A DNA stretch of 55,911 nt, the filler included, from Sluysia triapertura (taxonomy: Eukaryota), in assembly GCA_046118255.1 (NCBI GenBank). It is 4 parts of 4 records of this genome, joined end to end, with 100 filler letters (N's around TTAATTAATTAA, not from the genome) between each part and the next. Parts side by side here need not be neighbours in the genome. Positions count along the whole stretch, not along the records: positions 28,562 to 44,412 come from JBJNIA010217140.1; 3 more parts are not named here. One strand, written 5' to 3'. Below the pieces are notes generated by a model that was not told the DNA's origin, did not search any database, and saw only the letters and a list, made by a program, of their open reading frames with translations. Shown in pieces: positions 4,275 to 49,390 of the stretch. Within the stretch, counting starts at the first letter, position 1; the number at the start of each line of letters is the position of its first letter. The position numbers were made by a program, and so were the translations under genes.

Positions 4275-4329
4275 AGTGTCAATTCTTCTCCAGCGTGTGG
4301 AACTACTATTTGAGGTACTAGCATTCGTG

Positions 4330-4625: not shown

Positions 4626-4764
4626 ATTATTCATCATCACTACTTGTTTATCAATAAACGATTGAACCGATTGTGGTTTATCTCGGTTTTTATTTTTGGT
4701 TTAATTTTTAAATTGGTTTTCACGACTTTTCGATTTCGCAAATTATATTCTTCCTTATTCTTCC

Positions 4765-5600
4765 TTATGTGCTATTTTGTATCTATTTGCGTGTACTACA
4801 AATGTTTCTGTATTTTGTTTGTTTGGGTCTTTGATAAATAAATTAGTAGCTGTGATATTCATAACTTCATAATGACCTTAAAAGGTTTGTGTAGTCCTGG
4901 TTACTTTGTCTTTTACCTAAAATTTGTGTTCTTGAGCTTTTTTATCATAACTATCTTTATAAGATTCTTGTGAGTATTTTATTTGTAATCCTGCTATTCT
5001 CAGGCATCCAGTAAGTTTTCTCATAATAGTTACATATTCTGGTACCTCGAGATATTGTGATGTAGGTGGCACCCAATCTAAATCTACCGGCATGTTAGAA
5101 TGTCAGCCATACATAAGGAAAAATTGAGTAAAGTTGATTGTTGGGTGAACCGTCGGTTTGAGGATGATACGTATAAATTCTTAATGTATTAAAGATTTTC
5201 GGTAAGTAGTTTTCTTTGAGTTCCATACCTATAAATGATTTTTATACAAGAATTTGAGCCATTGTCTCGGCCTTCTGTCAAATAATCCACAAATACTATA
5301 ATGTATTTCCAGTGATTTTTTATGGAAGTGGTCCCATAATATCCATTTCTGTGAACTCCATAGGTGATAACGATACTGGCATCGGTTTCAGTTGTACTCT
5401 TGTTTTCTGTCCTGTATTTTTTCTACGGAAACAGATTTTACAATTTTTACACCACTTCCCTGTAGTATTTATTTTTTATTCTAGAGAATGTTTTTCTCGC
5501 TGATAGATGTCGATCATGCAACTGAATTAATATTGGTATAACTAGTGATTGGGGAATAATATTTCTCCTTTATCCTATTGCATTTTTGAATTTTAAACCA
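4765..5600 (-). pseudogene. Gypsy integrase remnant with GPY/F module
   Basis: KTFSRIKNKYY..CKNCKIC (zinc-binding part), MDIMGPLP, KYIIVFVDYLT, YHPQTDG, FLMYG, GHYEV...VVHANRYK. Confidence 0.92.
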
Positions 5601-5829
5601 CCATCTGTAATTGCAAGTCATTTGGCTTTTTTATCGTTTAACGTTCCTTTTGCCATTGCGTCGAGTATAAATGAAATATTCTTAACATCCCTTTGATGTT
5701 TAACGATTTTCAATCTTTCCCGAAATAGTTATAATTTGTATAAAACTTATATTACCTTTTTCGTCCGTATTAGTCAGCTCCACTGTAAACAATTTTTAGA
5801 TCAAATTCAGACAATTTTGTAAACCACCT

Positions 5830-6420
5830 ATTTACTATACTTATTTTTCATCTCTATGATTGTATAGTATGTTAAGGGTTTATGATCAGTATATAAATAT
5901 ACTTTTTGTCCTAATAGATAGTGTAAACAATTGCTATTGATGAATAATTTATTTCTGCCTTACTTAGTTTCCGACTGGAGTATGCTATAACTCCTAGATT
6001 ATTATTATCTTTTTGTCCTAAAATTGCGCCGATAGCGTAATTACTTTTATCTGTAGTTAATATAAACGGTTTATTAACATCAGGAAAAATTAATATTGGT
6101 GTTGTAAGTTTCTCTTTTAAAAATAAAAATGCTTTATTTTGATCGTCAGTCCATTCGAATTTTACATCTTTTTAGTGAGTTTTCTTAATGGTTGATATAT
6201 CTTAGCAAAGTTTTTTACAAACCTTCGATAATAATTAGCAAGTCCTAAAAAGCTCTGAACCTTTTTTACGTTCTCTGGTTTTGGAAATTTAACCACTTTT
6301 TCTATGTTTCTTGGATTTGGTTTAATGCCTTCTTTTGATACAATATGACCTAAAAATTCAATAGATGCTGAGGTTTAAGTTTAGTATGCTTTATTTCCTT
6401 TACATGTATCTCTAATTCTA
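5830..6420 (-). pseudogene. Gypsy reverse transcriptase C-terminus/connection and RNase H remnant
   Basis: IEFLGHIVSKEGIKPNP...VKKVQSFLGLANYYRRFVKNFAKI...FEWTDDQNKAF...PFILTTDKSNYAIGAILGQ...IAYSSRKLSKAEINYS...YTDHKPL. Confidence 0.95.
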
Positions 6421-7230
6421 TTAATGTACTAAAGAAATTATTTTACTTACAAATAAATAAAACTTAGTGATGCATCAAAAAATAATAATATAATAATGAT
6501 ATTAAGTTATAAAAACAATTTTTATGATGATTTTATAATTGACCAAGAGTCAACTTTCTGTTCATGATTTTAAGTACGGTTTTATAACCCTCATAAATTG
6601 AGAGTGGATCTATATAATATAAACTTATTTTATTTTTATTTTATTATTTATTTTAATTAATCTTAAGTAATTTTCTAAATATACAAATATGTTCGCTTAC
6701 ACCTTTACAGTCTGTTAGTAGAAATATGAGTTGTTGAGGTGTTGTGTAATGGTATATGTGGATTGTGTTATAACATGTATTTTTGTGCATGTACGTGGCG
6801 CATGTGAGATAATACATTTGTGATAAATGGTTAAATCACCACAGTGATGCTAGCAAGATTCGGAGATGACGATCTCTTCGAGCGTCATAACATTCGAATA
6901 ATATCCTTTTTCTTGTGTAAATAGGTTTGTGTGATCACGACGAATACTGTTTAAGGAGTTGTGGCGGTCATGCAATTATTAAACAGTGTAATCGTCATCG
7001 CTACAAGATTTGGAATATATTAGAGTATAAGCATAGTAATCTTGGAACCATCATAGTACGTAACATATTCTTGTATAAATTATGTAAGTATAGTTGGATA
7101 TCAGATTAAGTGATTGTGGATCATAATAGATGCTGCAGTGACATGCGACCATTAAAATCAATATTGATTACTTAAAATAAGCCGCATAAATATACAGTTT
7201 CAATAAATGAAAACTATAAAATATGCTTTT

Positions 7231-7320
7231 CCAATTAATTAACAGCAAATCCAATTAACCAATATAAAACAGCCAACCAATCAGAACGATCTATACCAAT
7301 TCAAATTAAACGCGCGTGAG
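7231..7320. promoter_or_regulatory. CCAAT-box cluster (putative promoter)
   Basis: Five CCAAT at about 7231, 7251, 7259, 7277 (CCAATCAG) and 7296, followed by CGCGCG at 7311 in a CpG-poor context. Confidence 0.35.
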
Positions 7321-7711
7321 TTAATCGATATTCGATAATCGAAATTACAGATGCTACGAAACGTTTGAAATGTCTCAATTATTGATGCTGAATTTATCTT
7401 TGATGATCGAATTAATCTTTCATTGTGGCTCATATTATAACCCATAAATTTTTCACGATCAGAAAGGAAGAAGCAATCGATATTTAGACATTTTAATACT
7501 ATTTGAAATTATTGTAATAATGATATAGATGTAACTAATAATATTTTAATTCTTTTTGGAATATTCGTCAATAAGTGGCAAAGAGTCGGAGTATCTAACA
7601 TTTTCTCCAAAATAAGTGTTATTAATTAATTTGTGTCGTTTCTGACTCTGGGCATTCATAGAGTAGTGTTCTGTGAGAAATGATTATATTAATATTGTAT
7701 AATTAATTCAG

Positions 7712-7807
7712 GAGAAGGAGTTACTAAGTCAAACCAATACCGCTCACATTTTCAATTGCTTGGCGAAACTACCATCAGATATTGATGATATTACTTTAGT
7801 GATTAAG
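7712..7807 (+). CDS. SGSM3: Internal exon of a TBC-domain RabGAP, SGSM3/RUTBC3-like
   Basis: ttcag| 96-nt open phase 0-0 exon |gtaagt. Encodes EKELLSQTNTAHIFNCLAKLPSDIDDITLVIK, resembling the remembered post-TBC segment of SGSM3 ([26 protein letters not shown]). Confidence 0.72.
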
Positions 7808-7859
7808 GTAAGTATTTTATTGAATTTGAATAATCTGGAATTTATTTTACAACAAAATA

Positions 7860-8030
7860 ATTAACTGATTGATAATGACTAACGAATGAATAATTGATTG
7901 AATGAAAAATAAACAACTAAATGACTGAAGGATTAATGGATGAATAATCGATTGAATTATTAATGAATAATTGATTGAATGATTAATGAATAATTGATTG
8001 AATGATTAGTGAATAATTGATTGAATTGTT
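7860..8030. repeat. Minisatellite, unit about 23 nt (ATGAATAATTGATTGAATGATTA)
   Basis: Several near-identical tandem copies of GAATAATTGATTGAAT. Confidence 0.85.
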
Positions 8031-8399
8031 AAATATATGTTATGTTCACATTTGTTAAATATATGGTCACACACAATTAGTTATAAATGTATTAATATAC
8101 ATTAGAAATAAATCAATATTCTAAAAAATTTTTATGTGTTAGAAATAAATCAATTCTGAAAATATTTTGTAAATTGATATTCTGGACATAATATATTACA
8201 TTTTAAACGTCAGGATTTTTTAATTATTATTAATTTATATTTTAATTTATATTTTGTCACAGTAGTCACATTTATTATCTTTTTTATTTTTATTTGTTTA
8301 AAATATTTAATTTTGTTTAAATGACCATAAGGTCATTCCATTAGACATAAATAGCAATAACTTTTTAATAATTCACACAATAGCAAAAACATAATTTGG

Positions 8400-9075
8400 T
8401 TGAGCAACTCTTCACGTGGAATCTTGACTTCGTAACATACATTGAGGATTCATCGTACAACGTTCTTTGACGAATTAAACTATTCATACGGATTTGCAGT
8501 CGTTTAGAATCTTATCGTTAGTTTTGTATTTTTAAGTTCCCGCAACGTTTAAGGTTGCATTATTAAAATACACTTAAATTCTTTGTTTAATTTTGAAATA
8601 GTTATCTTTTATTGATAGCTCATTAATATACTTGATTTAAATTTATCATAACATAGGGATTATTCCAGAAATAATCCATTTAACATTGCTGTACTATATA
8701 TTATTTTTTATTATTATTTTTATTGCAGTTCATTTGTACAGTTTCATCATTTAATAAACGTATTATTTTAAATATTATTTTCTAATTTATTTTAATATCT
8801 AAATAAAGAATAGGTTCGGTGTAAGAACCTTATTAAAATCATTACTGGTTCCAAGTAAGAACCAATTTTAAATTCCAATCAATTTAAATAAAATAATTTT
8901 CTTCTTAATAATAAGAAACCTCCAACTAAATATACGACATTTTTTGTGATATTCAAATAAATTCTTTATACGATAAATCCAACGGTTGGCCATTTTTATT
9001 TATGCCCAATACGTTGGCGGACTCACTTTCAATTTATCTTTATTCTGTACACCCTTCACTTCACATTTTCTTACA
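8400..9075 (+). repeat. LTR-like 3' terminal segment, copy B
   Basis: Ends ...TTTTCTTACA at 9075; hairpin at 8979-9017; inverted homology to 13084-13780 (e.g. AGGTTCGGTGTAAGAACCT vs AGGTTCTTACACTGAACCT). Confidence 0.65.
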
Positions 9076-10263
9076 ATATCATTGAGCATTATGAATTTAA
9101 AATGATTTTTATTTTATAATATTATTGAAAATTTTGTTTCTGTCAATTGACATTTTTGACGTAATGTTCATCGTAATATTTTATTATTTATGTTAAACCT
9201 AAACCTAAAATAGACCTTTTATAAAATTTAATATTTATATAATTATTATCCAAATTTTGAGATATAATAATTGTAAAGAACCATTTAAAGAATTTTTAAT
9301 AAAAATAAATTATATGCAAAGAAATTAAAAATTAAAATCAATAATTAGAATGTATGGTGAATGGAAAAAATAGTAATTTTTTTGATAGTCATTTTTTATC
9401 AAATTAGTTCTTTTCCGTTTATTACAGAATCAGAACCGTAAGTAGTTAATTATGTTTAATTAATTAATTTAATTTTAATGAAAATGAATTAATCTTTCCT
9501 TAAAACTGAAATTGTTTTTATCTTACAGTATTTTCGACAGATAAAATTTGAAAATGCATAAATTGAGCGTATGAATTTTATTTAGATTTAAAAATTTAAG
9601 TTTGTGCAAATGACAATTACAATAAATCCAGGGATCATTAACATTAAGAAACATTAACTTTAACACTTTAAAATAAACTGTGCTGAGAGTTTAATATAAT
9701 AGCTGTTACTTATTCAGCTGGATTGTTGGTTTTTTAAAAAGTATTTTATGATTTACTCAGAAAAATTGCTATAGATATGGGTTCGCCTGTAAATTGAGTA
9801 GGCACCTTTATAGGATTTAAATAAAAGTTAGTTAAAATCGACTAATGAATATCAATCAAATGTTACTTGGGAGATTGTATATTTCTATATAATTTTAATT
9901 CTAATAAAAATTTCATTCGAACAACAAAGTGATAAAATTTAGATGTGTTGAATATTTGCATAGGTTTAGAATATTGAGAATATAAATTATATAAAGATAT
10001 AGACTTTCTTGCTTTGCTGAAATTCAAATAACAAAAGTAACTACTAACAACAAAGTTGATATTTTGGGTATCACAAATAAAAAATATAGAATTATATCAA
10101 TAAAAATGAAAAAAGTATAAAACAAGGGTATACAATTTACTAAAAATGAATTTTTTTTCAATTTTAGATCAATTAATTTCAAAATTAAAAGTAATTTTAG
10201 CGAATTTTATAGTTTTTCGTATACAAACTCATTTTATATGAGCGTTACGATTCTCGATATTAA

Positions 10264-31094: not shown

Positions 31095-34000
31095 CAGTGG
31101 CGTAGCTACGCTTTTATTATTTTTATATATTTAATTAACTTTTTTGTTCTTTTAAAAATATTAAAATATCAAATCCATTCATTTAAAAAATTAAATTATA
31201 ACTACAAAACAGTAATCATCCACGTAACGTCATCTATTGGTTTCGGAACTCCTATTATACCATAAGAAATGGGAACTCCTTATTTTTTTGTTACTTAAGA
31301 AAATTATACATTATGGACATTGAAGGCGAAGATAATATGAATAAAGATGACAGTACAAGAAAGTTGTCATCGAAATAAAACTGTAAAATGAAATTGTAAA
31401 ATAAAATTGTGTGTTTACGTCTAAAATTTGTTTTACATAGTATCAATTCGGCCTTGACCGAATTGAAACAATTAATAATTAAAACAAAAAATTAAAATCT
31501 TTAAAATTTTAAAATTAAAGCTTTTTCTGATCACGTTAATTTTTATAATTTTTTAATTTAAAAATTACAGTTAATTAAAAATAAAATTACAATTTAAAAA
31601 ATTACTTTTATAAAATTTGAGATTTCCAAATAAAATTCGAAAATAAAATTCCTAAAATTCCAAATGAATGTTCAAAAACTAAAAAATTGATAAATGTGTA
31701 TAATAATTGTATGTTTATAGTTATATATAAATATAGTACATCAATCGGATCGAATAATAATAATAAGTAATTGTGTATTATTGTGGAATAATAATAATAA
31801 ATAATCATTGTGCATTATTGTTTATTGTGTATATTATTAACAGAAATATACTGAGGAAAATCGAATCCACAGATTTCGAAGGTCTCATTTCGAAATTTTA
31901 AAGTTCAAATGTTTGAAGATTTTGATGATTTAAATATGAATTTTCGATATTTAGTTGACACATTTAATAAATAAATATCAATTTAATAAACTTACTCTAA
32001 TAGGTTATTCAGTCAAAAATGTTGAACGAAATAAATTGACACTTTCAGTTATTTCTTTTGATTCTAGTTTTGTTACACAATCCCATATAAATCGCTATTG
32101 TTGAAAATAATGAAATTAAGTAATCGAAAAAAAATTCAGAAACAAACATTGTATATTAGAAGAACAAACTGAAACTGCTTCTTCGAAATTGGACGTAATA
32201 TCGGTTGAAATACATTTAGCTCATGATATTTTTCATTATGAATTTAATCCTTCCACGACAATAAAACAAGTTATTGAAACTGTTAATGAAGAACGAAATA
32301 TTTTAAAAAAGTATTGACCGATATACATATTCTCAAGAACCGATAAATAATGGAAATAGTAGTATTGATGATCAGCTTTACTATCGGATTATAAAGATTA
32401 TCAGTTTTCACTGGTCGAGTTAAAAAAATGTTTTTGTCTTCATGAAAGACTTGTGCTTAAGCCACTTTTTAATAAAATATAGAACAAAATTAACAATCAA
32501 ATTAAACATATATTCATTAAAATTTATTAATGCTTAGATTGACATTTATAAAAAAGTTCTTTTTAATTACAGTAAATGTTGTTGAAACTCGGGTTGACCT
32601 TTCCAGACCTTTTTTGAATTGCTCCTAAAGAATATTAATACAAAGAAACAATTATACAGTATTACCGTAAAATTGTGATACACAAAAAAATTGGCCCAAT
32701 GTTTAAATATTGATAGAAACTCGAAAATTATTGATGAAATAAGTAAATCAACTGATATTGGGCACTACATTAATGTTAAAGTTGCTGATGATATTAAAAG
32801 TTTATTAATTAATAATTCTTCTAATCACAAGGATAATTTACGAAGGATCCTGTTCAATAAAGTAGAAGTTTCAATGCTTCATACTATAATTTAAAGATAA
32901 AATGTGGAACAGTGCCACGGCCTTGGTTATGCTATTCAAAGTTATTGGATTCAGTATATTGCTGGTTATTTTCTAATCAAACAAATCAATGGTGTTCTGG
33001 ATTTCGGGATTGGAAAAACTTGTCGGAATAAATAAAAATGCATACACTATATGGATTGTTATAGAGTTTATGATTTATGAAACTTGCGAGAAATTCTCCA
33101 TCATTTCGTGGACATGATGAGTTAATTGGAAATGTTTACAATGGACATTTTTTTGTCTGAAGTTGAACTTTAGCAGATTATAAATGCCAACTGGTTCGAT
33201 TAAATATTTAAATCCAAAGTGAAATAATTCAATGTATTTGAGAAAATTTACTGGAAAAATTAATTACTAATATGAGATTAAGTTCGTGGTACTCCATTTT
33301 ACTTGATTATACTCAAGTTGACCAATTAAGCGTTATTAGATATGTACAAATTACTAGAAATCATAGAACCAATTGGTTTTGAAATAAAAGAACCAATGAA
33401 AATTATTTCTTTTTAAAGAAAAATTTGATTTAAGAATGTGATGAAAAGGATATATAATGGATTTCAAAAAAAATAAAAAAATTCAACCAAATGCTGAATA
33501 TATTCATTTGAATTTATTTTATAACTGAATTCATGCAAAAAATATTAACAGAGGTAAATTGTGCTTCAAAAGTTTTACAAAAAAAATAAAAGAAAAAAAC
33601 AATACAACTAAAATTAGATCTATTTAAAATGAAATTAAAAATGAAGCAATCGAGTTATCAAAATCCTGGGAAAAAGACAACCAAAAATAAATAACACTAT
33701 GATGAGCTAGCCGATGACAATGGATTCGAAACAAGAGAAGGTATTTTTAAAATTCAAGTTTATAATTTTGTAAGTGATCGTGTTGTAAATTAAATAAAAA
33801 GATTTGAACATATGGATAATGTTGTGAACTATTTTGACTTTTTAGAATCTAAAGAATTATTAAAATTATGAACAAAAGAAATAAGTTATAAATGCGACAA
33901 GTTACAAAAAACACCCACAATTACTAACAGTCATATTTGCTATACAGTTTACAAACTGTTTTGTTGAAAAGCGATTTAAATGAATCTATATTAATAAGGA

Positions 34001-34550
34001 ACTTTGCAAATATTATAATTGAAAAATTTAGTTCTTGGAAAGTGATTTATCTGATGTATATACAATGTTTATTATATTTTTTTCACTTTCCAGGTGACTA
34101 TTGCTACAGTAGAAAGAACATTAAGTTAACATTAAGCAAATTAAAAATTATAAAAGATTTAAAAAAGAAATTCAATTGGACAATCTCGTCTGAAGTATTT
34201 AGCATTGATTTTTATTGAGAATAAAGAAGCAAATCAATTAAATACTAAGACTGTGTTTGATAAATTTGCGGCTGCAACATCTAGACGAAAAAGAATTTAA
34301 ATATCTTTTTATACTTTTGTTTATATTCAAATATATTTTGCTTTTTATTTATAATCATTTTTTAACGTTTAACACTTGTACTTATTTGTACTTTAAAATG
34401 ATTATATATATGTATATGTTTTGCTTAATATATCTATTTCGTTCTCTTAAGTTGAAAAAATAATTTTCCTTCGTATAAACAGTTGAAATAAAAAAATATT
34501 AGTAAGGGCTCCGTACTTAGAATTTGCTTATGAACCTAGTTACGCCACTG
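31095..34550 (+). mobile_element. Near full-length decayed hAT transposon (ZMYM1-like/Tip100-type transposase)
   Basis: TIRs CAGTGGCGTAGCTA ... TAGTTACGCCACTG. Remnant motifs RPWLCYSKLLDSVYC, GFRDWKNL, FRGHDE, IRYV and TIATVERT..SKLKIIK (hAT dimerisation domain). The 8-bp TSD is degraded. Confidence 0.9.
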
Positions 34551-37500
34551 CACCACTATACTTGTTTGAATGGAGTAGACTACAAAAAATGTAATGCTAG
34601 AATTATTAGTCATTGTAAAATTAATTACATTAATTAAACAATTTCCCAAGTCAAACTTTTACTTTATAAAAACTACGTCAATAAAAATATTAATGATTCT
34701 TCCTAAATACATTAACTGCAAGTGCACATAGATATCACTTTATTGGTAATAAGAATTTTTGTATTATTAGTGTTTTTGTATTTTTACATTAATATTTATA
34801 TTTTGACCAAATATAATTTATCTTTCTGCTGATTGGAGATTATAGTTTTTGAGTAACTAAACGTGAAATCTGTTAACATTTTATTACACGTAATATCTAA
34901 TTGAAAAATATTTTGTCTAGTAGATTTTGTACTATCGTTTTACAAATTTCAATTCTGCGATTTTTTAAATCATTCATATTTCATTAAACTTCTTTACTTT
35001 ACCCATTCAATGTAACGGTGTCTTGTGATTCTTGATTATAAATAGTCAAGATCATTAACTAATGATCGAGGATTTATCTTTATGGAAGTCCACCGTTAAT
35101 CATTTGAACGATAAATACCTTTAAAGAATCAATATATTAATTTTGGCACATATAGATATTTGGTGTTGGAATTTATTACAAGATTGTAAATTGAATTAAA
35201 TTTTTGAATTTAATATTTAATAATAGGAATATTTAAACAATTCTCTTTATTTTATGAATATATTACGAAATGAATTTCCTACTTTTAACTTATGACTAAT
35301 GTTAAAACATGATTTTCGTAAATTTTTATTAAAATAATATTCGTTAAAATTATTTGTCCATAAATGTTTGCTAAAAAATTCTATTAATGATATTTTCGGA
35401 ATCTTGGCAATTAAATAACTAATTATAGAAAAATTAAAATAATGAAAATAAACTAAAAAGGATGTATTAAAATTTAATCTAATAATTTTAAGTGATTATA
35501 TGTTAATAATATATTGTATACTAGATTGTTAAAATGTTGATATACGCTTGTACATATTGGAGGACTGACTTCAGACGGAATAATGTTGATATAATAAATG
35601 ACTAAAAAAGAGAAATTAGAATTAATATTAAAATTAGAATTAAAGGATCGTAATTGTGAAATAAGGTAAAGTTTTCTTCTGCTTTTGAAATCGTATTACG
35701 ATTTATGAAATCTGAGTGTGATGTCTAATGAGTTGAAGTATGGCCACATAACATATAAGATATCATTCGTGTGAATTGCAACAACTTGTTGTAAATTTAT
35801 TTCATTAAATAAAATCATAACAATATCATTAGTTCTATGACTTGATAATAAATGTTCAATTAATACTACTCATTTGTCTAATTCATCATCACTTCTGTGA
35901 GTAATTTAAAGTAGAATAGAATAAATTTTAACGTGAGTTCACCAACGTACTGGACTTACCGGTTAGGGCCAGCCATTGGATTTGTGAATAAAAGAATTTC
36001 TTAAATAAGGCTAAAAGAAATGATCAAAAAGCTTTGCTAAATATTAAATTAGAGACGTCCGGAGGTAAGCTTGATACTCAAGAATTTTATAAGATTTTAC
36101 CAAAAAATTAATAATGATAATGTTATTTGATTAATTTTACGTTGATTCCTTGAAATGGAATCTTAAAAAATATTTTGCGTAATTGGATTTAAATTCCAAT
36201 TGTTGAAAACAATTTTGTCTACAGATTTTACAATCTACAACTATGTAAATTGAATAATAAATAATCTTCTTTAACAATTTATTATAAAACAGTGATAACT
36301 GGTAAAAATAAATAATATATAATATAATGATATTTTACGTGTTTTAACTCTGTAACGGTTAAAATTTCAAAAAATCTAATAGATTTTATCAAAGATTTTA
36401 CATGGGATCTATTATAAGATCCAAATAATTAACAAAATATTTTAAGTCAGATTTTTCGCTGATATTATACTAATATCGTACAATAATTAAACTAACGTAG
36501 TACAAAACAAAATTTGAAAAAATTCAGCTGGTTCTGAAACCGTAATTCTGGAACAAAATCTATTAAGAAAATTGTTAAAAAATTGTGAGATGTTTTCAAA
36601 ATTTAAGTTTATAATCTGACCTTCAGATTAAAACAAAAGTTTAGAATTTAGCTTATTGAAACAAAAAATAAAATGTATTTTATAAATTTATTTTATTTTA
36701 CGTTAGTTTAATTAATTTAATTAAAGATTTTATATTAATTAATTTTCAAAAATTTGTAAAATTAACAATAAATTAAACAATTAAAAATTATTAAAACTTA
36801 CATTTAATATGAAGATATAATTTCCAAAAATAACAAGTAATTTTACAATAAATAATTACAGTATGACTTTATACAAGTAATAAAATGAATAATATGTTTA
36901 TAAATAAATAATCAATAAGTATAATCACAATTAATTCAATAAGTGTGTAGTATATGTTACAAGTATATGCTACAAGTAAACAATCAATGAGTATGTAAGT
37001 ATTAAATTAAACAATCAATAAGTGTGTAGTATATGTTACATAAGGTTTGGAAAGATGTTTTGAAGTATGAAGACACCTTTGAATTTCTGAATCTCTGGAT
37101 CATTTGAGACCTTGTTGATCTTTTGGAATCTTTGAAGACGCTTGAGAACTTAATAAATTTTGGAGACCTTTGATTAATCTTATAAAATGTTTGGAACGTT
37201 TAAATTGTTCAAGAATTAAAATCACGGTTAATAATAATAAAGATAAATTTAATACATTAATAATTAAAAGAAAAATTAGAAAAAAGTTGAAAAAAGAATC
37301 AGGGTGGTGAAGATGAAAACATATAGAGCCTTCTGAGTACCGTATAAAGTATTTGACAACTTTCTAACCATAATAAAATCTTTAAACTTGGAATAATATA
37401 AGTTAAAATAATTACTTAATTAATTAAAATCTTAATTAACTTAATTAAGAAAAATTACGCTTGTGTGAATAACTTTGAATGAGGAGTTCTATGTTCAAAC

Positions 37501-38621
37501 TGTAATAATTTATGTATGTGTTTGAAAGAGACCTTCCAATGAAAGTAAGTTTTTACCGAGTTCACGCGAGGAGAGCCTCTATATTGAGTAAAGTCGAATT
37601 TTAATTAAAAATGATGAAATTTTTTAATTAAATAATGATGAAGAGGCGATGAATTAGATATAGAGTTATTGCTATGAAATAAGAGGATCCAAAAATTAGG
37701 TCGAAATGGTTTGTGAAATGGTTTGTTTCGGAAAGAGAACTTTAAACATTTTCATTTAAAAAATTGAGTGTGAGGATTTGAAAATTAATTAAACTGTAAA
37801 AACTATAGTTAAATTCATTATTTTAAATAGATCAAGTAGAGTAGACGAAAAATGAGAGTTGAATGTTAATCGAATTGCTTTGTTTTTGCTTGATAGATCT
37901 TTAATCTTTAAAGAGGTTTTGATGATTTGTGTAATAGTAATTTCTGATTGTGAGTTTGAAAGTGATTGGTCATACAGAAATTTAAAAACTAATGCTTAAT
38001 AAAAATAATAATAATAAAAAGAATAAAAATAATACTAATAAAATAATATATGAAAAATGCATAAATCCTAGATCATCCACACGATATGTCTTTTTTTCTT
38101 TTGTTTCTCAACATATAAATAAATAAAATGAAATAATAATATGTATATAAAGATAAAATAAAATGAAATGCATATACTTTATTTTTTTAGGTAAAAGTGT
38201 TTCTCTTTCTTATTTCTGTAAATGATCTTTATTTTCTTAGAACATGTATGATAAAATGAAACTTTATTTAAATTAAAATGCTTAGAATGGTTTTAAAGTG
38301 TGGGTTTAATGTTTTTCAAAGGTGGTAATAATTGAGTGTTGAAGAATTGTGAACTTGAAATGTTTAAGATTAATTTTAACATATGTATTTGATAATTTAA
38401 GATATAATTGTGGTTCTAATGTTATGATATAATGGATAAATTATTTTAAATGAAATTTTAAATGTACATTGATGGTTTTGAATGTAAGTTTGGTAATGTT
38501 AATTTTAATAAGTGTTTCATATTTATAATTTTATTTACAAAGTGTTTGTTTTTTAATAAAATTGTGATTAAAACTTTCTTTATAATGTTATTTACATTGT
38601 TATTAGAAAATATCTTAAAAT

Positions 38622-39077
38622 TTAAAATCTATTATAAGCTATATAAACCATAAAAGACATTCTAGCTAAAGAACATTTATTATTATTACTTTTATAAATT
38701 AAAATTTTTAAGTCTGGAGGTCCACTTATGCATAACCCCTTGAGACTTAATAATGTTCCACTACCGGAATAAAATTTAAAAATATCATCATTATTATTTA
38801 AAATTAAATTAAATTTTACTTTAGCAGAGTTTACATTATGATCACTGGTTATAACTTTGGGATTCGTTAACACAATGTGTTTAAGTAGTTCGATGATTTG
38901 TCCATTGTTCATATCGTGTTCATATTTACATTTATTACCATATTTTGAGCAAGCTGCTAAATTAGTTAAAGAAAATGGGCAGAAAGCAAAGTCACTAATT
39001 GCAGGATTCATTTTTATCTTAACATTCTTGTATTTGTATTGGTAAAAGGAATCGACTTTATAATCATTATCATGCAT
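38622..39077 (-). CDS. CCCH-type zinc finger protein ORF (cargo; probably the 3' part of a longer decayed gene starting near 39901)
   Basis: 151-aa ORF, the longest in the ORF track. FCPFSLTNLAACSKYGNKCKYEH = C-x9-C-x6-C-x3-H at 38916-38981. Confidence 0.6.
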   Translation of the reverse strand: MHDNDYKVDSFYQYKYKNVKIKMNPAISDFAFCPFSLTNLAACSKYGNKCKYEHDMNNGQIIELLKHIVLTNPKVITSDHNVNSAKVKFNLILNNNDDIFKFYSGSGTLLSLKGLCISGPPDLKILIYKSNNNKCSLARMSFMVYIAYNRF

Positions 39078-41157
39078 ACATAATTTATGTTCACTGTTGA
39101 CTACATTAAAGCATTAGATGATCTTTAAGTTTTCAAATTCTTTTTTCGTATTATCTTAATCAAAGTAACGCTTTTGTGATGATCAAGGATCAACTAATGT
39201 AATTCTTATAACATTTATACAAATTATCAAATTTAATTTCTTTAAAACTTTTAAAATTATATCATTACATGATAAACTCACAATAAACATAGTTTTATTT
39301 AGAAAAGGTTTAGAATTATACTAATACTGTTTAAATACTTACTGCCTTCAACATTACAGTATTTTATTGTAACAGTCAACATAACGGTTTACATAAGTAT
39401 TATGTCTCAAGAGTAGATATCCATAGTTGTATAAATTACGTTGTCTTTCATCTACGACGATTATGATAGTCTTTTTATTATACTCATGAATAAAGAATTT
39501 CATAACATATGATAAAGAATTGCTATTTAAAATTGATAGATCTAAAACATACATCAATACAGTGATCCCAATATAGCTTGCACTGTTTTGTGACTTTTAT
39601 ATTTACTTCTGTCAAGCTTACTCGAAATTTTTCGTTCAATTTGAAATAAAATTTTATTACTAAAGGAATCTTTATCAATCATTGTTGATGTTTCTTTGAA
39701 CAATATCGTTAATAGTTTGTCTAATTTTGGTCTTACATAACTCGAAAATTCAACACGATTTTCATAAATTGTTAATGATGATAATACACAGGTTCTAAAA
39801 TGACATGTATTAGTTGGAAAAAAGGTAATTTTATGAATATCCAAACCAAACATATCTTTTTCAGTTAAACTCGTAACATTAATTTCCATGATTTTGATCA
39901 CAATGTATAACGCTCCAAAAAGTTTTTTAAATTTTTATTTAAATTTTTATTACTCTGAAATTTTATGAAAATTTTCGATGAAGTTTTTGATGTTTTATCA
40001 GTTCTCTTGCTGATTGGTTATCCAACCAAATGATCCAAATAACACTTTCATATAAGCGCATTTGGTTGTATAACCAATGAAATCGAAGATTCATATTCAG
40101 CACACAAGAGAATCAATTTGATGATGAAATAATCAAATGTGATGACTACCATCATCATCAATGACAGAAAAATTGTTAACGTAAAACAAAGATGTCATTA
40201 TGATGATGGCAGTAACTCAGTCGATTTTAGTGTGCATAATTTTTAATTAATTTTTATTATGATAATGATTAAATGTTAATAATAATAATAACAAGAACAC
40301 TATTGTTATTATTATTATTATTATTTTGCAAATTTAAAAATGCATAAACCTTGGTATCTTTATGTCTTACACGAACTTTTCTTTTATCTTTACTCTTTTC
40401 TCACTTATTAAATCTAATTAAATAAAAGCTCATTTAAATATTGTTTCGAAAATATTTACAAGAAAAGAACATGTTTGTTATTATTATTATTTCGATAAAA
40501 ATGCATATATTCTTTGCTTTGAGACTCTATACACGATCTTTCTTTGCTTATTTTGTGTTACTTAACATATCTAGGTTGTAGAAATGAAGAGAGATTTCAG
40601 TTTTGTGAATTTAAAGTGATAAGGTTTTTCTTTGTGACTTTACCTTCTTTTATGTAATTGTTTCTGATATTCTGGCTGAAATAATATTATTATCTGAAGT
40701 GTTACTAATTCATGTATAGTTTTTCAATGAAAACCTAGAATAAAGTAGACGCTAGAGTTAGTAATCGTGGTGTTTGGTTGTGAATGTTGATGTACATTTT
40801 TTGGATGGAAGGATGTAGAAATGAAATATTTTGAATTAAAATTTAATATGTTTTGATGGTTTGGAGTATTAATGTTTTTTGGATGTTGTGAGGTGTTGGA
40901 TAAGTGTTCATAATGGATTTCTTGCTATGAGTTAATGGTGTTTTTATTATGAATTGACAGATTCGCGGTGTATTAAGAAATAAATTTTTGCTTTGTGAAT
41001 TTATAAGATATTAATATATTTTTTAAGGTTATTCAAACACAACACGATATAATCGAAACTCATAGATATGAAAATTTAGTTGAGTCACATTTGTTAATCA
41101 ATCATGAGCGATGTTCATGGAACACACGAGCGATTATTGCAATGAATGCTTTAAAGT

Positions 41158-41638
41158 ATGTCGGATGATGATGAAGATTATGGAGATAACGATGATGATG
41201 ATTTTAATGATGATTATGAAGTTAAAGATAACGAAGATGATACTCTTAATGAAGAGCTTGATGACATATTAGAATTTAGAGAAAATGTTATTAAACATTC
41301 GAGAAAATATGCAAGTCAATTTTTGCCCATTAGGTAGCGACAAAAATGGCGTATATATAAAGAGTGGAATCGACTGCTGCTATGCTCAAAGAGTCTACGA
41401 ATTGGGGTCTATCAAGAGAAATGATTCAAATTATAATTATCATTCCTCTAGAATAGCAGAACTAGTCAAGAATCTTAGTTTATTGACTACGAAATCGAAT
41501 ACCAACAACTTTATCATGAACGATCAAGAAGTAAATAATTCGTTTATTTATAGTGATAATATTATAATCTATAATTGTTATTCAGATAGTGGAGTCGTAT
41601 TAGGAGGACATACAGAAATTCAAAATTATAATAAATAA
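41158..41638 (+). pseudogene. Acidic N-terminus plus degenerate CCCH zinc finger
   Basis: MSDDDEDYGDNDDDDF... then, removing one T from the T5 run at 41320-41324, KYASQFCPLGSDKNGV(Y)IKSGIDCCYA(Q)RVYEL. The Y (TAT) and Q (CAA) codons are each one base from C and H. Confidence 0.6.
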
Positions 41639-43140
41639 ATTTTTATGTGATTTTTATTTATTCTTCATAGAACAAAAAGTTAAGATCATTTTAAATTTTC
41701 AATTTTAAAAAATAAACTTTTGATAAAATTTAGTAATTTCTTCGTAACCAAAACGCAAGTAACCATTTAAACTTATTTTTTAATTCAAAAAATTTGAAGT
41801 ATAATTTGAAATTTATTAATTATCTTCAACCACAACAATAATAATGTTAACAATAATGATAATAATAATGATAATAGTAATAATAATAGTAACCCAAGCT
41901 TAATGAATAGACCAGGTTTCTAGTAGTAATATCAGCGCTCAGTAGGTCTATTTATTTTTATCGTCAGGTATTAAGAGCATGACAAATAAATGACAAACTA
42001 ATATTTCCATACACCTTCTAACACTAAGCATCGCTGGTCCCATTACTTATTTATTAGCGCGAAGTACATCTCAGAGTAAAATATTTGACATATTCCACTT
42101 TAAATCACGCGGTATCAACAAGCATTATTTATCTTCGTAAAAACATTTGAAACAATGAATGATGGTAATTTGAAACTGATGTAACTGTGGATCACAATGA
42201 TAAAACATAATAAGTGTGAATCTATAGATGACAATGTTTATTAATTAATTTATTATTGGTAATTATACGAAATTAATAAATATGTTCATCGGTTTCTGTA
42301 GCACCTCTGAGAGATGGAACTAACGTGACAATTAATAGATATCCAATTAAGACACAGACATTTCCTTACCTTGTTGTTTCTGTACTAAATTAATAATAAT
42401 AATAATAATCTATTATGATTATGATTATTATTATCGGGCCTAGGATCCAAGACATGTAAATAAATATTATAAGTGAATATTAATATAAAAGCGTTTCCAT
42501 AGTTCATTATTACAATCATTGCGTGGTTTATCAGTTTTAATCCGTTTAAATTGAAAATCATCTCGGACAAACCAAAATGAATTAGGTAAATTATCAAAAA
42601 TATATTTGGTTGTTACAGTATCATTTAACATTCTTTGACTTACCGAAACAGATCTATTACAATAATCTGTGCGTATTACAATACTAACTGTTAAAACTGG
42701 ATAGACACTATCTTCAGACTTGTTATTCGTTTACGATGACTCATAAAATCTAATAAACCACCAAACTGACTGATATCTAATAACTTAACCACCTCGTCAT
42801 AAATCGAGCAATGAATGCCTCTTCCTTCAAAAAATACTTCCAAAACATGTTTGAAATTACAGTCTTCATTATTAACAATATTTTTAGTAAAATCTTGTTT
42901 CTCAGTTTCAATATTATTAAGATTCATAAGATGTTTTTGATCATAGTTACTTGAGTTTAATAAATTATTTTCATTTAGTGTAATGGTAATTTCGACTTCA
43001 CTTGTGGAAGTCATATTCGTATTATAGGTCTTTATTTTTTTTACACCTTTTTAGTACTTTAAAGTTATTTAATACAATTGTTTTCTACAATACCACTTTC
43101 AAATTCAACATCAAATTGTTATTGTGCGTTGTATTGCAAC

Positions 43141-43200
43141 TGATTGGCTGTCCAATCAGAGATATAAAAATAATGAAAACAATCACTCTGGTTGGACAGA
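43141..43200. promoter_or_regulatory. Inverted CCAAT-box module upstream of ORF 42691-43014
   Basis: TGATTGG-ctgt-CCAATCAGAG ... CTCTGGTTGG; related arrangements at 40010-40078 and 50285-50348. Confidence 0.5.
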
Positions 43201-44362
43201 TATTTATAACATAACGTAAATAAAATTGACATACAAGCCACTTCCAACGGTGACAATAATTTACACATAGTAACCAATAGTGGCACCATTGGTACTGGTT
43301 AGATGACAAAACTAAAATTAAAGATCCAAAATAATGAAAATAAACATGATAATAATAATAACAATAATAAAAACAATTCTTTAGATTACTCAAAACATGA
43401 ACTTTCTTTTAATTCTTTCTTGTTCTGAACATATTTAAATTGGTGAAATAGAAGAGCATTAAAGAATTGTGAACTTGTGATGTTACAGATTAATGTTACA
43501 CATTTTGGATACAATTTTAAGGTGTAATAGTGACACTAATGTAAAATGTTTAAAATAAATTTTTAAATGTTATTTACTAGTTTTAACTGAAGATAAATTT
43601 AGGTGTTGAAGGCTTGTGATTTAAGTGCTTTGAAATGATATAAATGCTCTATGTGGATTTTAAATGTACGTTAAAATGGATGTTTAAAGATCGTAATTTA
43701 AAATTGCCTTGAAAGGAGTGTGGTTTAGTGACTGTAAAGAAGATAAATTATGGACTATGATTTGGTACATTCTAAAAGGTAATTGTGTAATGTTAAAAAG
43801 ATATGATTTTGGTTATGTTAGTATTGAACTATGTAAGAAAATGTTTATGATGAATTCTTTGAATGTAAATCGTAAATTTTGAGGGTGAATTTGATTTTGT
43901 GTTAAAAGGAAAAATTTTAATAAAATTTTTAATAAAAGTGATAGGTTGGCCACCACAATTATTATAATTATAATAATAATAATTATTATTATTATTATTT
44001 AATAAAAATATGAATAGTATATTAAAATAATATAATTTCATTTTACTAGATATACATTAATTGAATATTTTAAGTTATTTATAAATATAAGTAAGTAAAA
44101 TTATGAAAATAATAAAAACATGTTTGTTTCAATCAAGTAACAGTTAATTCTTGATCAGCGATGCAGTAAACTAAAGGAATGAATTAAAATAATGGATATT
44201 ATGTAAAGACAATGGATTGAAATAAGTTGATAAATCAAAATTTTAATAAATAATCAATGAAGCAAAGAGTTTCACTTATTTATTATTATTAATATTATTA
44301 TTTTTAATTTAATTTAATAATTTTCAAAAGATGACGATGACTAAGATGATTACTACTATTAT

Positions 44363-44412
<50 letters not shown>

Positions 44413-44512
44413 NNNNNNNNNNNNNNNNNNNNNNNNNNNNNNNNNNNNNNNNNNNNTTAATTAATTAANNNNNNNNNNNNNNNNNNNNNNNNNNNNNNNN
44501 NNNNNNNNNNNN
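44413..44512. other. Artificial assembly spacer
   Basis: N44-TTAATTAATTAA-N44, preceded by (CTA)n. Confidence 0.98.
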
Positions 44513-45729
44513 TTATTCATTTACCTTTGTAATCAAGATTATTAATAAAATGAATTTTATTCAAAATTACAAAAATATAAAATTTATAATTAAAAAATTT
44601 ATGAATAAAAAATGTCAATATTTTATTGCAAACTATTAGGTTTGGTATATTCTATTAGACTTGTTATTTTCTATTCTATTATGGATAAATTATATGACAT
44701 GCGTTCAAGTATTTTAAAGGAACACTTTCAAATGCAATTATTTGATAAAGCTATTAAATCACTTCGTATAGCGTTTCTATTGTGATATAATTTTATGCCA
44801 TAGTTATGGAGCTGCTTTATCATTTGGTATGTTTTGTATATATTTGACTATATTTTAACTCATTCCACATTTTAAAAAGCATGCTTATATTATACGATCG
44901 TATTATTTTAGTATAATTTTAAATATTATTTTTATGACCATATCTGGTCTCAATTATTTGAATTCAATTATAAATGTTGATATCATTGTTATTTTATAAA
45001 TATTCACTTTACTTATGCTACTCTGATTTAAATTACTAGCAACCACAGTTATTGTATTCATTTTTATAATGTCTCATTTCTTTGCCATTTATTATCATAT
45101 TGAAATTATAAACATTACGAACACTAATTTAACTCAAATTTGTTACTTGAATTCGAAAAATTATGTCATAGTTGTATTTTTCTCTATATTATTACTTTGG
45201 ACCATTTTCAATGGATTGTATTTAAGATTGTTACAATCATTATATTATAAAGGTGCTTTTTATGCATTAATCCAAAAGGTTAAAGCAAGAATAGAAATTA
45301 AAATAGCATAACAAGTTCAATTGTATTGGCTTCGAGCTTTCATGCCCAATAGTATGACTAAATAATGTGTGTCTGAACATGTAAAAGAATCAAACAATTT
45401 CAATACAATAACGTTTGTACAGTCAAATAATAGTGTGAGCCTATTTATGTGTCTTTTTGTTTTATATTATGGTTTAATAAAAAAATTGAAATTCGTTTTT
45501 GTGGAATTGTTATTTTTTAAAGATCTTAAGCCTAGTTTATTAATTCAAAAATTTAATAATTTTTTAATGCTTATAAAGTTAAAATGTTCTCGTTTAGCTA
45601 GAATTTTAAACTTATTAAATAAAAAATAAAATAAAATGTCATTCTTCTAACAATTTTTGTGTAATTAAAAAATTAACCAAAATAATCTTAATTTATTATC
45701 CATAAAATATAAAAAGATCTCCAAACAAT

Positions 45730-45869
45730 GAAGACTAACGCTATCATCATCTTTTCCTTTTGTCTCAATAGCTTTAGTGCTGTAAAAAACTGGATACAAA
45801 ACCCAATGAAGTTGGCTACAAATTGTGCACCATAACCAACAATAAGATAAAGAATATTAAATACGATTA
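45730..45869 (-). pseudogene. REEP5: REEP5/DP1/Yop1 (TB2/DP1/HVA22 family) fragment
   Basis: After the acceptor tttttag: IVFNILYLIVGYGAQFVANFIGF-(frameshift)-YPVFYSTKAIETKGKDDD, matching the remembered family motif LYLVFGYGA.LLCNLIGF.YPAY.SIKAIES..KEDD. Similarity stops before the expected WLTYW. Confidence 0.8.
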
Positions 45870-46479
45870 CTAAAAATAGAAAACGTAAATGCCACACACT
45901 AATATGAAATAAAAATGATAAGAATGAAACAATAAAAACGATGCTATTATTATTATCATGATTAACCGTTACCATAATCAACGATTGCTATATACTTAAT
46001 GTCTGGAGTGAGGGAATTTTGTGCGTAGGTGAATAAAATTGATAAAAAGAAAGTGATGGATGCTATTGCTTTTGTATGAAGTGTGTTATGATGTGTTGTG
46101 ATATAATATTAAAATGTGAATTATTAGGTAAATCACTACAATATGCAATTCACATTGTTTTTGATTTGAATTGAATGTTAAACTAATATTGTTAATATCT
46201 TTTACTCTTTTTATTATTTGAACAATGGAATATATAATGTAGTAGTAATCATTGCTGGAGTATTCGATGATTATATAATTTTATTTGATAATAGAATATA
46301 AACAATTACTGGGATATTTAAATGATAAAATAATTTTATTTTGATAATGGAATGTAGTAGTAACAATTGCTAGAATATTAAATGATTATATATACAATGT
46401 AATAGCAAGAATTACTATTTTAATACTAATTAAAAGGACTATACAATGTAATGACTACTATTTGTAGTGACTACTAATA

Positions 46480-47519
46480 TATGTACTGACTAAATACTAA
46501 ATATTTACATTATTTACATATGTTGATTAATTTTATGTATATAATAATACAATTATTTATTGGTAATGACTAAAGAATACATTGTTGATTAATGACTAAA
46601 AATAAAATATTTATTGATTAATTTTGTGTTGATCTTGTGTACAATTATTGATTACTTCAACAATTTATTATTTATTTTCAAATTTAAAGGAATTAATCAA
46701 TGTTAATAAGTAAGACTTTAATTATTTTTAAATTATTAATAAAATTATATTTAATTAAAAACTAATTTTATCACAAAAATCATTTGTTGTCATAAATAAA
46801 ATATTAGTTTTGTTTCAGTCTGACATATTCTTCTAACCGATTTTCTACGAAGATTAACTCTACGTTATCAATGAATATATCTTCATTCCAATCCTGCCAA
46901 TCTAATCGTGACTTCAAGAAATCTTTATTCAATTTTTCATTATTGTAGTTAGTTTACTTTTATAGGATTTGATATCGATAAGATATCCACGCAAAATCAG
47001 ACTAAAAATCATAATTGTAAATTATTTCGAATCTTACAATAGATTCATTGTAAACTTTTAACTAAAATAATTTCTCAGTAAAAAGAATTTGATTAATTTT
47101 AAGTAATTTTGTATACATATTTATATATACTTTTATATATACATAACATTTTTAATAATAAACCTTACGATTTAATTTTCTTAATTTGAATTAATTTACA
47201 TAGTTTTAAATGAAAGAAAAATCATCCGTCAATTGAATTTTTGTTAGAATATAAATCTAACAACGAAAACTAATCATTTCGATTCTATTTCAAAGTATCT
47301 ACGAAAAATTTATATTTAAATTTCCTGAATAAATCATATAAGTTGAATTAATAGATAACATTCTAAACAACTAACATAAATTCTAAAATTTGATAAACTT
47401 GACTTAACCTCCAATATTTTTACTTTACTAAATCCAACGGCTGGCCCTCGCTGGTAAGTCCAGTACGTTGGTGAACTCACAGTTTTAATTTAACTTTTAT
47501 TCTATACACTTTTCCCACA
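46480..47519 (+). repeat. LTR-like 3' terminal segment, copy D
   Basis: Ends ...TTTTCCCACA at 47519; hairpin at 47434-47471; inverted homology to 1035-2920 and 35896-37030. Confidence 0.7.
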
Positions 47520-48220
47520 CAATGTAATAGTTTTACCAAGCAATTATTTTATTTAAAATTGATACAACTTCCTCTTTTATTTTCTGTACATATATTTCTA
47601 CTTATACACTATACATTTCTACTTCTATGCTATATTTTTTACTACACACTATGATGAAAAATATATAAATATACATATAAAATATATGAAAAATATATAA
47701 GTAAAGGTAAAATTGCTGTACAAAAGCATTCGTGTTAGATTTATTTTCTTAAAACCTGCGAGGCTTAATTTTAGTACATGTGTAGTCCATAAACATTACA
47801 TTAATAATTTAACAGATTAATTTGTTATTTGTTTAGATTTTTTGGTTAATGAAGAAAGACGTATTAAGGCAAGAACTCATAATAAATGATAATAAACGAT
47901 CCGACATTGGTGCTATTGCTTTAGTCATTTAGGTAATCATTATGTTTGTTTCGAACAAATGTAGATATCATTGCTTACCTTATGACAACTATGATAATGA
48001 CCACTATTAAGTTCCAAACCATTTTATTACACCATCCCACGTAACATCATTTTCCATTGCTGGACTGCAAATTAGGTATTTAGAATCAACATTATTCGTA
48101 TTTCATCTCCGATGCATGCACATACAAACAATAAATAATGAGTATACCCAAAAGTATTAAACCTCAAATAACCATAATTGTAAATCAAAATGGCATAGTC
48201 AAGATGCGATTGATCTAAAG

Positions 48221-49390
48221 CAAGGGTCGACAACTTACGGCCCGCGAAATGATTTTGACAAGTTCATGAAGATATTTGACTGGTTCTTGACCGCATGTTA
48301 AATAATGTTAATAAATTTAATAAACAAAAATTGTTTTAATATTCATTAAAATTCACTATTTAAATTTTAAATTAACCCATGAATTCAAAGATCAGGAAAG
48401 TAGGTGGCGAGTTTGATTATTTCTTTATCGAGCAAAATGGAAAGCGAGCATGTCTTACTTGCCTTGAAAAGGTTGCGCCGAATAAAGTGACCCACAATTT
48501 TGAAAATTTAAAAAAATTACCGGAGAATTAAGGAGAGATGAAGTTAAATAGCTTAAATCTAAGTTTGGAAAGAGACATTATTTTTTACGAAGAAAAGAAG
48601 TGAATGTGAAGCTAATACCCGTGCAAATTATGAAGTGTCAAGACTTATCACTGAAAATGTGAAACCGTTTATGAATAGTGAATTTGTTAAACAATGTTTA
48701 ATGACAGTGGTCGATATGCTTTGTCCAGTAAATATTCAATATTATTATCTGATAGGACTGTCACAAGACGTATTGAAGAGATGTCATCAGATGTTAAAAG
48801 TTGTTTAATGAAGGCCTGCACTGAATTGCAGTTGATGAGACTATAAACTTAAATGGCACAGCTCTGCTTAAAGTGTTCATGCGAGGTGTGACTTCGAGTT
48901 TCAATGTTTTTGAATAATTTATTCAGTTAATTCATTTGAAAGATACATTTACTGAAGCAGACAAAATGAACTTAGATATTTCAAAATTAATTGGCATCAC
49001 AATTGATGGAGAACCGGTAATAACGGGAAATAAAAAAAAGCATTGTTGCAATATTGCAGGAACGTATGAAAAATCTTGGAATTCCACAGAAGCTGGTGAA
49101 AATTCATTGTATTATTCATCAAGAAGCCTTATGTGACAAATCTGTGAAACTGAAGAATGTAATTGACACTGTTGTGAAAGTTGTTAATCTGATCCTATCT
49201 CGTGGATTAAATAATCGCCAATTTAGGCAGTTTTTGGTAGATACAAAGGATGAATATGGAGACTTCGTCTATTTTTCCATTGTTCGCTGACTAAGCAGAT
49301 GTTCAATGCTCAAAAGAATATTAAAATTACATAATGAAAGTGTAGTTTTCCTTCAAAGCAAATCTGTGGATGCATCACATTTTCGCGTCA
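48221..49390 (+). mobile_element. 5' part of a decayed hAT transposon (SPIN/Charlie/GTF2IRD2-type)
   Basis: Terminus CAAGGGTCGACAACTTACGGCCCGCG after ATCTAAAG. Motifs KPFMNSEFVKQC, LSDRTVTRRIEEMS, ITIDGEPVITG, IHCIIHQEALC and GLNNRQFRQFL..EYGD. Confidence 0.92.

Follow-up and report, generated by a model that had tools for sequence, protein, structure and literature searches.

In a 55,911-nucleotide stretch of AT-rich eukaryotic DNA from Sluysia triapertura, joined from several contigs and called the window here, two sites on contig C217140 lie on opposite strands and appear to encode related zinc fingers of the CCCH (Cys-Cys-Cys-His) type, which raises the question of where these fingers come from, what carries them and whether the encoded protein has ever been of use. 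The answer we favour, with moderate confidence, is that both open reading frames (ORFs) are broken, intron-less pieces of unkempt residing in the long terminal repeats (LTRs) of Ty3/Gypsy elements, captured from mRNA and kept as an RNA-binding accessory gene. That the finger unit is LTR-borne and of Unkempt origin we regard as highly probable.

The minus-strand site (38916..38981) translates into an intact C-x9-C-x6-C-x3-H finger inside a 163-residue open piece, and the intact motif, found once in the six frames of the window, did not appear in any of 60 shuffled sequences. The plus-strand site (41324..41389) matches it in length and start but carries Tyr as ligand 2 and Gln as ligand 4; because its relatives carry intact ligands, we interpret it as a decayed finger. 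The original prediction took the two sites for diverged forms of one finger, and this proved right: both span 66 nt with the same start, and the ORFs around them, termed type A (minus strand) and type B (plus strand), are homologous outside the finger too (27% identity over 117 amino acids, E = 3e-5). The ligands it pointed to are kept in relatives as well, all four being intact in 24/36 type-A and 15/30 type-B copies, and in 16/20 of the Unkempt-like copies described below. Each of the two ORFs is part of a large family of repeats, with matches at 150/150 scored places in either search (the best 150 of 1126 first-look candidates for type A and of 2338 for type B, candidate figures that are not copy numbers). 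Both window copies are broken, type A by a frameshift near 39593 and more breaks down to 39113, type B by truncation, a frameshift and the loss of two ligands. Their closest relatives are 90-93% identical, so the window copies are old; the longest open frames among type-A copies reach 486 amino acids.

The spacing of the finger, which the original prediction considered atypical, is the native spacing of Unkempt finger 3. Type-A and type-B fingers align without gaps to residues 100-128 of Unkempt (PDB 5ELH_A), the sole PDB match of a type-B ORF (E = 1.1), and share with finger 3 a K-x-G before ligand 3 and an aromatic residue at the F149 position; type B also has an equal distance to the following helix. 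Against the Pfam family zf-CCCH_UNK (PF25427) the type-A and type-B ORFs scored 10-22 bits, under the cut-off of 31.1. When the genome was searched with this profile, 150/150 scored places (the best 150 of 5489 candidates) lay above the cut-off, and the same search gave a match in none of 14 control genomes. Two of the matches are intron-containing exons of host unkempt, L248, with fingers 4-6 downstream, and L249; the remaining inspected top matches are repeats with Unkempt fingers 1-3 or portions of them. One of the least-diverged Unkempt-like copies matches 5ELH_A at E = 7.6e-24, and these copies show 71-84% DNA identity to the host exon in L248, with homology stopping ~14 nt short of the exon end. 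The host intron that ends at a splice acceptor before the finger-3 exon is absent from 5/5 inspected copies, four of them continuous through finger 2 and one with a small deletion there. L248 and L249 are two paralogues with a common intron position before the finger-3 exon, and the LTR copies are nearer to L248 than to L249.

A finger tree built from 85/101 segments and 54 columns (the 16 omitted had frameshifts or more than two stops), with long branches and a bootstrap not fully settled, recovered type A (100/99) and type B (97/97) as clades and put the host exons L248 and L249 among the Unkempt-like copies. Starting from the host, the sequences form a series from near-host copies to the diverged types A and B; a separate, older capture may lie behind type A or B. 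Between subfamilies the flanks of the finger fall to 20-35% identity and the ligands are kept. Types A and B have one finger and the least-diverged copies fingers 1-3 only, compared with six in UNK/UNKL, and types A and B further differ from Unkempt in an extra C-terminal domain without known family, in being intron-less and in lying in a repeat. No relative at E <= 0.001 was found for the 486-residue type-A ORF in protein databases (0 of 4413 candidates, near lengths only) or for a 325-residue type-B ORF among 1.84 billion representatives, and the N-terminal part of type A had no Atlas match, results that do not prove absence. Tis11/TTP proteins carry a YKTEL-type lead-in directly before a tandem pair of C-x8-C-x5-C-x3-H fingers. 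We rejected this family for the present finger, which is single, differently spaced and has its lead-in in another frame. The KYASQFC lead-in previously likened to Tis11/TTP is an artefact of a deletion: relatives have ~13 residues between KYxSQF and the first Cys, and lead-in and finger lie in different frames because a frame-shifting deletion near 41320 joins them in the window copy.

We then consider the carrier. Aligned type-A units start with TGTGGTGGCCAA and end in CCAAA, and aligned type-B units have the same start and end in CCACAACA, the termini being TG...CA in type B and TG...CCAAA in type A and in short LTRs. LTRs with a type-A or type-B ORF measure 2.4-2.9 kb. Target-site duplications were scored on relatives, the window copies being without 5' ends; an exact 5-bp duplication follows the unit end in 8/36 finger copies with the 5' motif upstream, against 0.33 expected (type A in L045, L052 and L097; type B in L054, L100 and L104; Unkempt-like in L252 and L261). 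The type-A end passes directly into the primer site TGGTGTCAGGAG in L002, L049 and L096, and a primer site follows the LTR for type A also in L199 and L294 and for the B clade in L184. In its extended form the primer site is antisense to a tRNA 3' half with CCA; we take it to be that of tRNA-Leu, and ARAGORN, run on 8 loci, found no whole tRNA and did not identify the primer tRNA. The leaders behind the primer site in L096, L049 and L199 match the leaders of gag-bearing elements, and those of L002, L131 and L184 gave no match to them. The gag-bearing elements encode a DUF7041 gag (E = 4.5e-12), protease, Ty3-like reverse transcriptase, RNase H and integrase. A polypurine tract stands before the LTR start of the clade at 44 junctions in the genome, and before the type-A start at one, in L294. 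This locus has two A-derived, internally deleted LTRs without the finger, 89-96% alike and flanked by a GCTTT duplication, which enclose a primer site, leader, integrase end and polypurine tract. L176 shows in succession a primer site, gag, integrase, polypurine tract, LTR start, helicase pieces and the finger; the 3' end of its LTR was not found. From the duplications, primer sites, leaders, gag-pol elements, polypurine tract, L294 and L176 we conclude that units A and B are best read as LTRs with the ORF inside, on the sense strand. The idea in the original prediction that a mobile element carries the fingers was therefore sound, copies lying between LTR termini with 5-bp duplications. The carrier family is present in hundreds of copies in this genome, and finger copies are interrupted by other repeats. 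Among its relatives, C29277 (L168) 5220-9394(-) is an internally deleted element that has two LTRs of 107 bp and a TCTTT duplication, and has no reverse transcriptase or RNase H. Across the clade the length of the LTR ranges ~25-fold, from 107 bp in C29277 to ~3 kb, with constant termini.

In a PDB search the element pol gave Ty3 reverse transcriptase as best matches. The elements resemble the CsRn1 clade (PwRn1, PMC2582038) in the CHCC gag motif, found as C-x2-H-x9-C-x3-C in L283 and as a variant in L286, in the order protease, reverse transcriptase, RNase H, integrase, and in the GPY/F integrase tail. They differ from it, as described there, in a primer site other than the tRNA-Trp site of CsRn1, in a 5-bp rather than 4-bp duplication, in ORF-carrying LTRs of 107 bp to ~3 kb and in a type-A end of CCAAA instead of CA. 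Because primer site and duplication length differ, we label the elements only CsRn1-like Ty3/Gypsy on present sequence comparisons. Two further observations concern the primer site. In L107, L152, L177, L183, L203 and L205 it is lengthened by tens of bases, antisense tRNA-like, as if extra primer had been reverse-transcribed and integrated. In L121, L122, L123, L125, L126 and L160, a degenerate primer-site copy, a primer site and a small GGAG-n5-CTCC/CCCC hairpin form tandem units.

Capture of the finger would have begun with template switching onto mRNA during reverse transcription, bringing an unkempt piece into the U3 region of the LTR; template switching onto co-packaged mRNA is a described route of LTR-mediated capture (PMC5131818). 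We place the insert in U3 because the type-A and type-B ORFs end 100-200 nt ahead of the LTR end. The insert would then have been copied into both LTRs and would persist in each solo LTR. Fingers 1-3 were presumably trimmed down to finger 3, and the N-terminal partner may have been swapped repeatedly.

To assess selection, we aligned the DNA of the copies with a single natural reference and sorted the changes: those seen in one copy count as private, those with each allele in at least three copies as shared. The copies were found via protein similarity to open references, a possible bias, though the private ratios match those of non-coding controls. Private changes are neutral throughout the LTR ORFs (omega 1.0-1.2), stops included. 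Stops are depleted among shared relative to private changes in every group (p = 6e-6 to 8e-3), with 0/286 shared versus 11/244 private in the C-terminal part of type A, 8/877 versus 30/646 in the long type-A ORF, 2/346 versus 23/495 in type B and 1/144 versus 16/258 in the Unkempt-like copies. The shared/private amino-acid-to-silent ratio is 0.46 in type B (p = 3e-6), compared with 1.10 and 0.91 in shifted frames, and 0.44 in the Unkempt-like copies (p = 7e-4). The three Cys ligands of type A are kept in 91-94% of copies versus 59-78% for other Cys columns, a contrast that is weak in type B. Since shared changes are poor in stops and those of type B are silent-site enriched, the ORF stayed open during element activity, and past selection on it is likely. 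The signs of selection that the original prediction asked for are present in the depletion of shared stops and the silent-site signal of type B; private changes are neutral, and the type-A signal is not frame-specific.

We predict, somewhat less firmly, an RNA-binding accessory role for the LTR ORF. The putative protein with its single CCCH finger would bind zinc and A/U-rich RNA, and its target might be the element's own AT-rich RNA, with effects on stability, translation or packaging. Unkempt fingers 1-3 favour A/U-rich RNA, with weaker binding than that of fingers 4-6 (PMC12136788), and an RNA-binding mutant of Unkempt affects four residues of fingers 1-3, namely R119, Y120, N143 and F149 (bioRxiv 2024.07.29.605660). 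At the F149 equivalent, Tyr is found in 28/29 type-A and 23/28 type-B segments, and the Unkempt-like copies keep R119 in 9/19, Y120 in 13/19, N143 in 10/19 and F149 in 12/19. Because types A and B keep the aromatic residue at 149 and lose or change the other three, we favour a module that would bind RNA weakly or with altered specificity and would act on the AT-rich RNA of the element. A look-up of sequencing runs listed no RNA, and the one run examined retains the host unkempt intron and is DNA-like, possibly the source of the present assembly, making it uninformative on expression.

Several observations weigh against this interpretation. The amino-acid-to-silent ratio of type A is 0.60 and 0.75 in frame versus 0.62-0.83 in shifted forward frames, and that of non-coding controls falls to 0.51-0.59 in some frames; because of these overlaps the test shows no selection in type A. 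Constraint on the LTR ORFs is far weaker than on integrase/pol, where the ratio is 0.15, and pairwise omega is 0.07 for pol versus 0.49-0.67 for the LTR ORFs. In types A and B the equivalents of R119 and Y120 are lost and that of N143 is mostly changed, and the finger 1-3 cluster, even when whole, is the weaker RNA binder of Unkempt (PMC12136788). Structure prediction, proposed with the original prediction, yielded AlphaFold2 models with mean predicted local distance difference test scores of 47.4 and 56.6, too low in confidence for any claim about the fold, and Foldseek with the better model (56.6) returned nothing at E <= 0.001. As to the carrier, an exact duplication is absent in 28/36 finger copies, and two full-length finger-bearing LTRs of one element occur on no contig, long repeats breaking the assembly; of 5 matches to type-A primer-site junctions, none combined a long type-A LTR with gag on one contig.

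If the unkempt piece had hitch-hiked in the LTR as a neutral passenger and yielded no useful protein, at least in type A, then the lack of frame specificity in type A, its overlap with non-coding controls, the loss of RNA-contact residues beyond the finger core and the neutrality of all private changes would follow. We consider this unlikely, given that shared stops are depleted in all three groups, that the ligands are retained though the flanks diverge between subfamilies and that the signal is frame-specific in type B and the Unkempt-like copies. A protein directed at the host is less probable still. Such a truncated Unkempt mimic would compete for the targets of Unkempt or other CCCH proteins, or blunt RNA silencing; a host-derived finger kept across subfamilies while its partners change would suit this role, and Burro elements carry host domains that may meddle with host pathways (PMC6431247). 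However, types A and B retain one of six fingers, and the captured piece does not include the UAG-binding fingers 4-6, as homology stops within the finger-3 exon.

Far less probable than either is that the copies are members of a host gene family dispersed in the genome, or retrogenes that were domesticated and came under host selection. Long open frames of up to 486 amino acids in some copies would agree with this, but private changes are neutral, stops included, and the copies sit between LTR termini with target-site duplications and are broken up by other repeats; for the copies examined this explanation is largely refuted. Equally improbable is a cargo of a Helitron or another DNA transposon with a terminal hairpin, to which the modular, nested arrangement and a hairpin repeat close by might point. 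Helitrons and Helentrons make no target-site duplication and have 5' TC and 3' hairpin-CTRR ends. The units studied here instead have 5-bp duplications and LTR-type ends, and the hairpin repeat has entered A and B by insertions of its own. Intron loss and the linkage to gag-pol, together with the 5-bp duplications, the primer site and the polypurine tract, argue for LTR retrotransposition rather than a Helitron.

The original prediction had proposed the terminal hairpin as a possible ligand of the finger. This link is not supported, as the hairpin (near 35940-35980) lies in a separate 1.14-kb TG...CA repeat (35896..37040, plus strand) outside the finger units, which is inserted into both A and B units. 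In L058 it interrupts a type-B unit with a 4-bp ATAT duplication, and it also sits at the end of type A. We considered whether it forms the terminal inverted repeats of the finger element and dropped this, in view of its TG...CA ends, the duplication in L058 and its own insertions into A and B. One of its 23-mers has 666 exact matches. The repeat is abundant, occurring also at window positions 1035, 9046, 13084 and 47504, with a conserved hairpin ~45 nt from its start. It is probably the solo LTR of another family, a status no more than probable because a 4-bp duplication was found for only 2/27 candidate starts. An Rfam scan of window positions 34000-48500 found nothing, and so no known ribozyme in the hairpin.

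The finger region of the window is best described as a nest of LTR remnants, comprising type A, the 3' third of type B and two more LTRs of the clade. The type-A LTR (38489..41032, minus strand, ~2.5 kb) has its CCAAA end at 38489 and lacks the first ~16 nt in this copy; since no primer site follows its end, it is a solo LTR. Its ORF consists of a broken 5' portion (39114..40200, minus strand, 5' limit approximate), with the frameshift near 39593 and further stops and frameshifts to 39113 and with no Pfam, protein-database or Atlas match, and of a final open piece (38622..39113, minus strand, 163 amino acids) that holds the finger, intact and derived from Unkempt finger 3, and the C-terminal domain. 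A Walker-B/NTPase reading of this ORF was dropped, as Pfam support was lacking. The type-B remnant (41037..41837, plus strand) ends in CCACAACA and lacks ~2 kb of the 5' part; it contains in order an acidic stretch (~41153-41320), the frameshift, the finger, which has lost ligands 2 and 4, and the C-terminal domain. Insertion of type A into type B at a shared site was considered and dropped, the 9-nt match after the end of A being present in the neighbouring LTR type too. Another LTR remnant of the clade, in which no finger was found, occupies 37041..38488 (minus strand) and apparently received the type-A LTR as an insertion ~150 nt from its own start. A further LTR (42388..43957, minus strand), also with no finger found and with its 3' end not defined, starts with TGTGGTGGCC at 43957, a start that also stands after a polypurine tract in L247 and L275. 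It includes an ORF piece (42694-43050, minus strand) with a weak DNA primase small-subunit match (E = 6e-4), probably captured cargo of a sister LTR type. Elsewhere, window positions 2940-6374(-) hold pieces of a broken Gypsy pol (RNase H, integrase-like), and after these come ORF pieces that contain hydrophobic stretches and, judged by eye, may be env-like; the three downstream pieces scanned had no Pfam match.

The sequence upstream of the finger varies, with a DEAD-box helicase in L176, helix-loop-helix in L145, acyltransferase in L056 and a weak kinase-like piece in L086 (E = 0.012). No family could be assigned in type A and most of type B, and of 140 sequences scanned against Pfam (136 of the 208 representative finger-upstream pieces and 4 other LTR ORFs), 131 had no family. 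The partner copies are broken, and the partners are therefore known as neighbours of the finger, not as in-frame fusions. The helicase pieces in L176:1800-4867(-) and L282 are 78% alike and follow integrase, polypurine tract and LTR start. Other cargo was observed as well: L272:5707-6684(+) is a 326-residue ORF with SKI/SNO and c-SKI Smad4-binding domains, ~1.25 kb past a polypurine-tract LTR start (the 3' end of this LTR was not found), and is probably another captured host gene, and L185:1691-2899(+) has a glycoside hydrolase family 85 match in an ORF that lies immediately before a primer site and may be further LTR cargo. It is tempting to speculate, and no more than tentatively, that the LTR serves this Gypsy clade as a cassette for building genes, in which a fixed Unkempt-finger RNA-binding module receives different host fragments in front and thereby an accessory protein per subfamily. 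On this view every solo LTR would amount to a chimeric gene, complete in itself and potentially expressed, and the clade would offer a parallel among retrotransposons to the U3 accessory genes of retroviruses, with the host donor still traceable. Mouse mammary tumour virus sag and human immunodeficiency virus nef are accessory ORFs in or overlapping U3 and likewise occupy a terminal repeat. They are fixed genes of vertebrate retroviruses with shown function, whereas here the carrier is a retrotransposon, the host donor is traceable, the partners are swappable and the function is putative.

LTR-mediated retrocopies (PMC5131818), for which maize Bs1 is cited there as an example, are likewise partial, intron-less mRNA pieces, sometimes from several genes, that can move again; those described are internal, retrotransposon-flanked and in few copies, whereas the present pieces lie in the LTR, persist in solo LTRs, number hundreds of copies and show selection in the element lineage. 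Bdelloid ORF3 elements (PMC5408684) and planarian Burro (PMC6431247) are also invertebrate LTR elements with host-like accessory domains, but their extra coding sequence sits between pol and the 3' LTR or in the polyprotein. In the literature covered, which left aside repeat databases, supplements and subscription papers, we found no Unkempt finger in a retrotransposon and no captured ORFs in invertebrate Gypsy LTRs. The finger type, LTR gene capture and extra ORFs are already known; what is new is the cargo placed inside the LTR itself, as the cargo described in the available text of these sources sits between LTRs or in the polyprotein (PMC5131818, PMC5408684, PMC6431247). Cargo in the LTR is duplicated with every cycle and survives when the internal region is lost, and can therefore fill a genome, as it has here. 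A single genome thus presents a host RNA-binding domain becoming a probable accessory gene of a retroelement, from near-host to deeply diverged copies, and makes the origin of accessory genes, and the question whether elements recruit host RNA-binding domains against silencing, directly testable.

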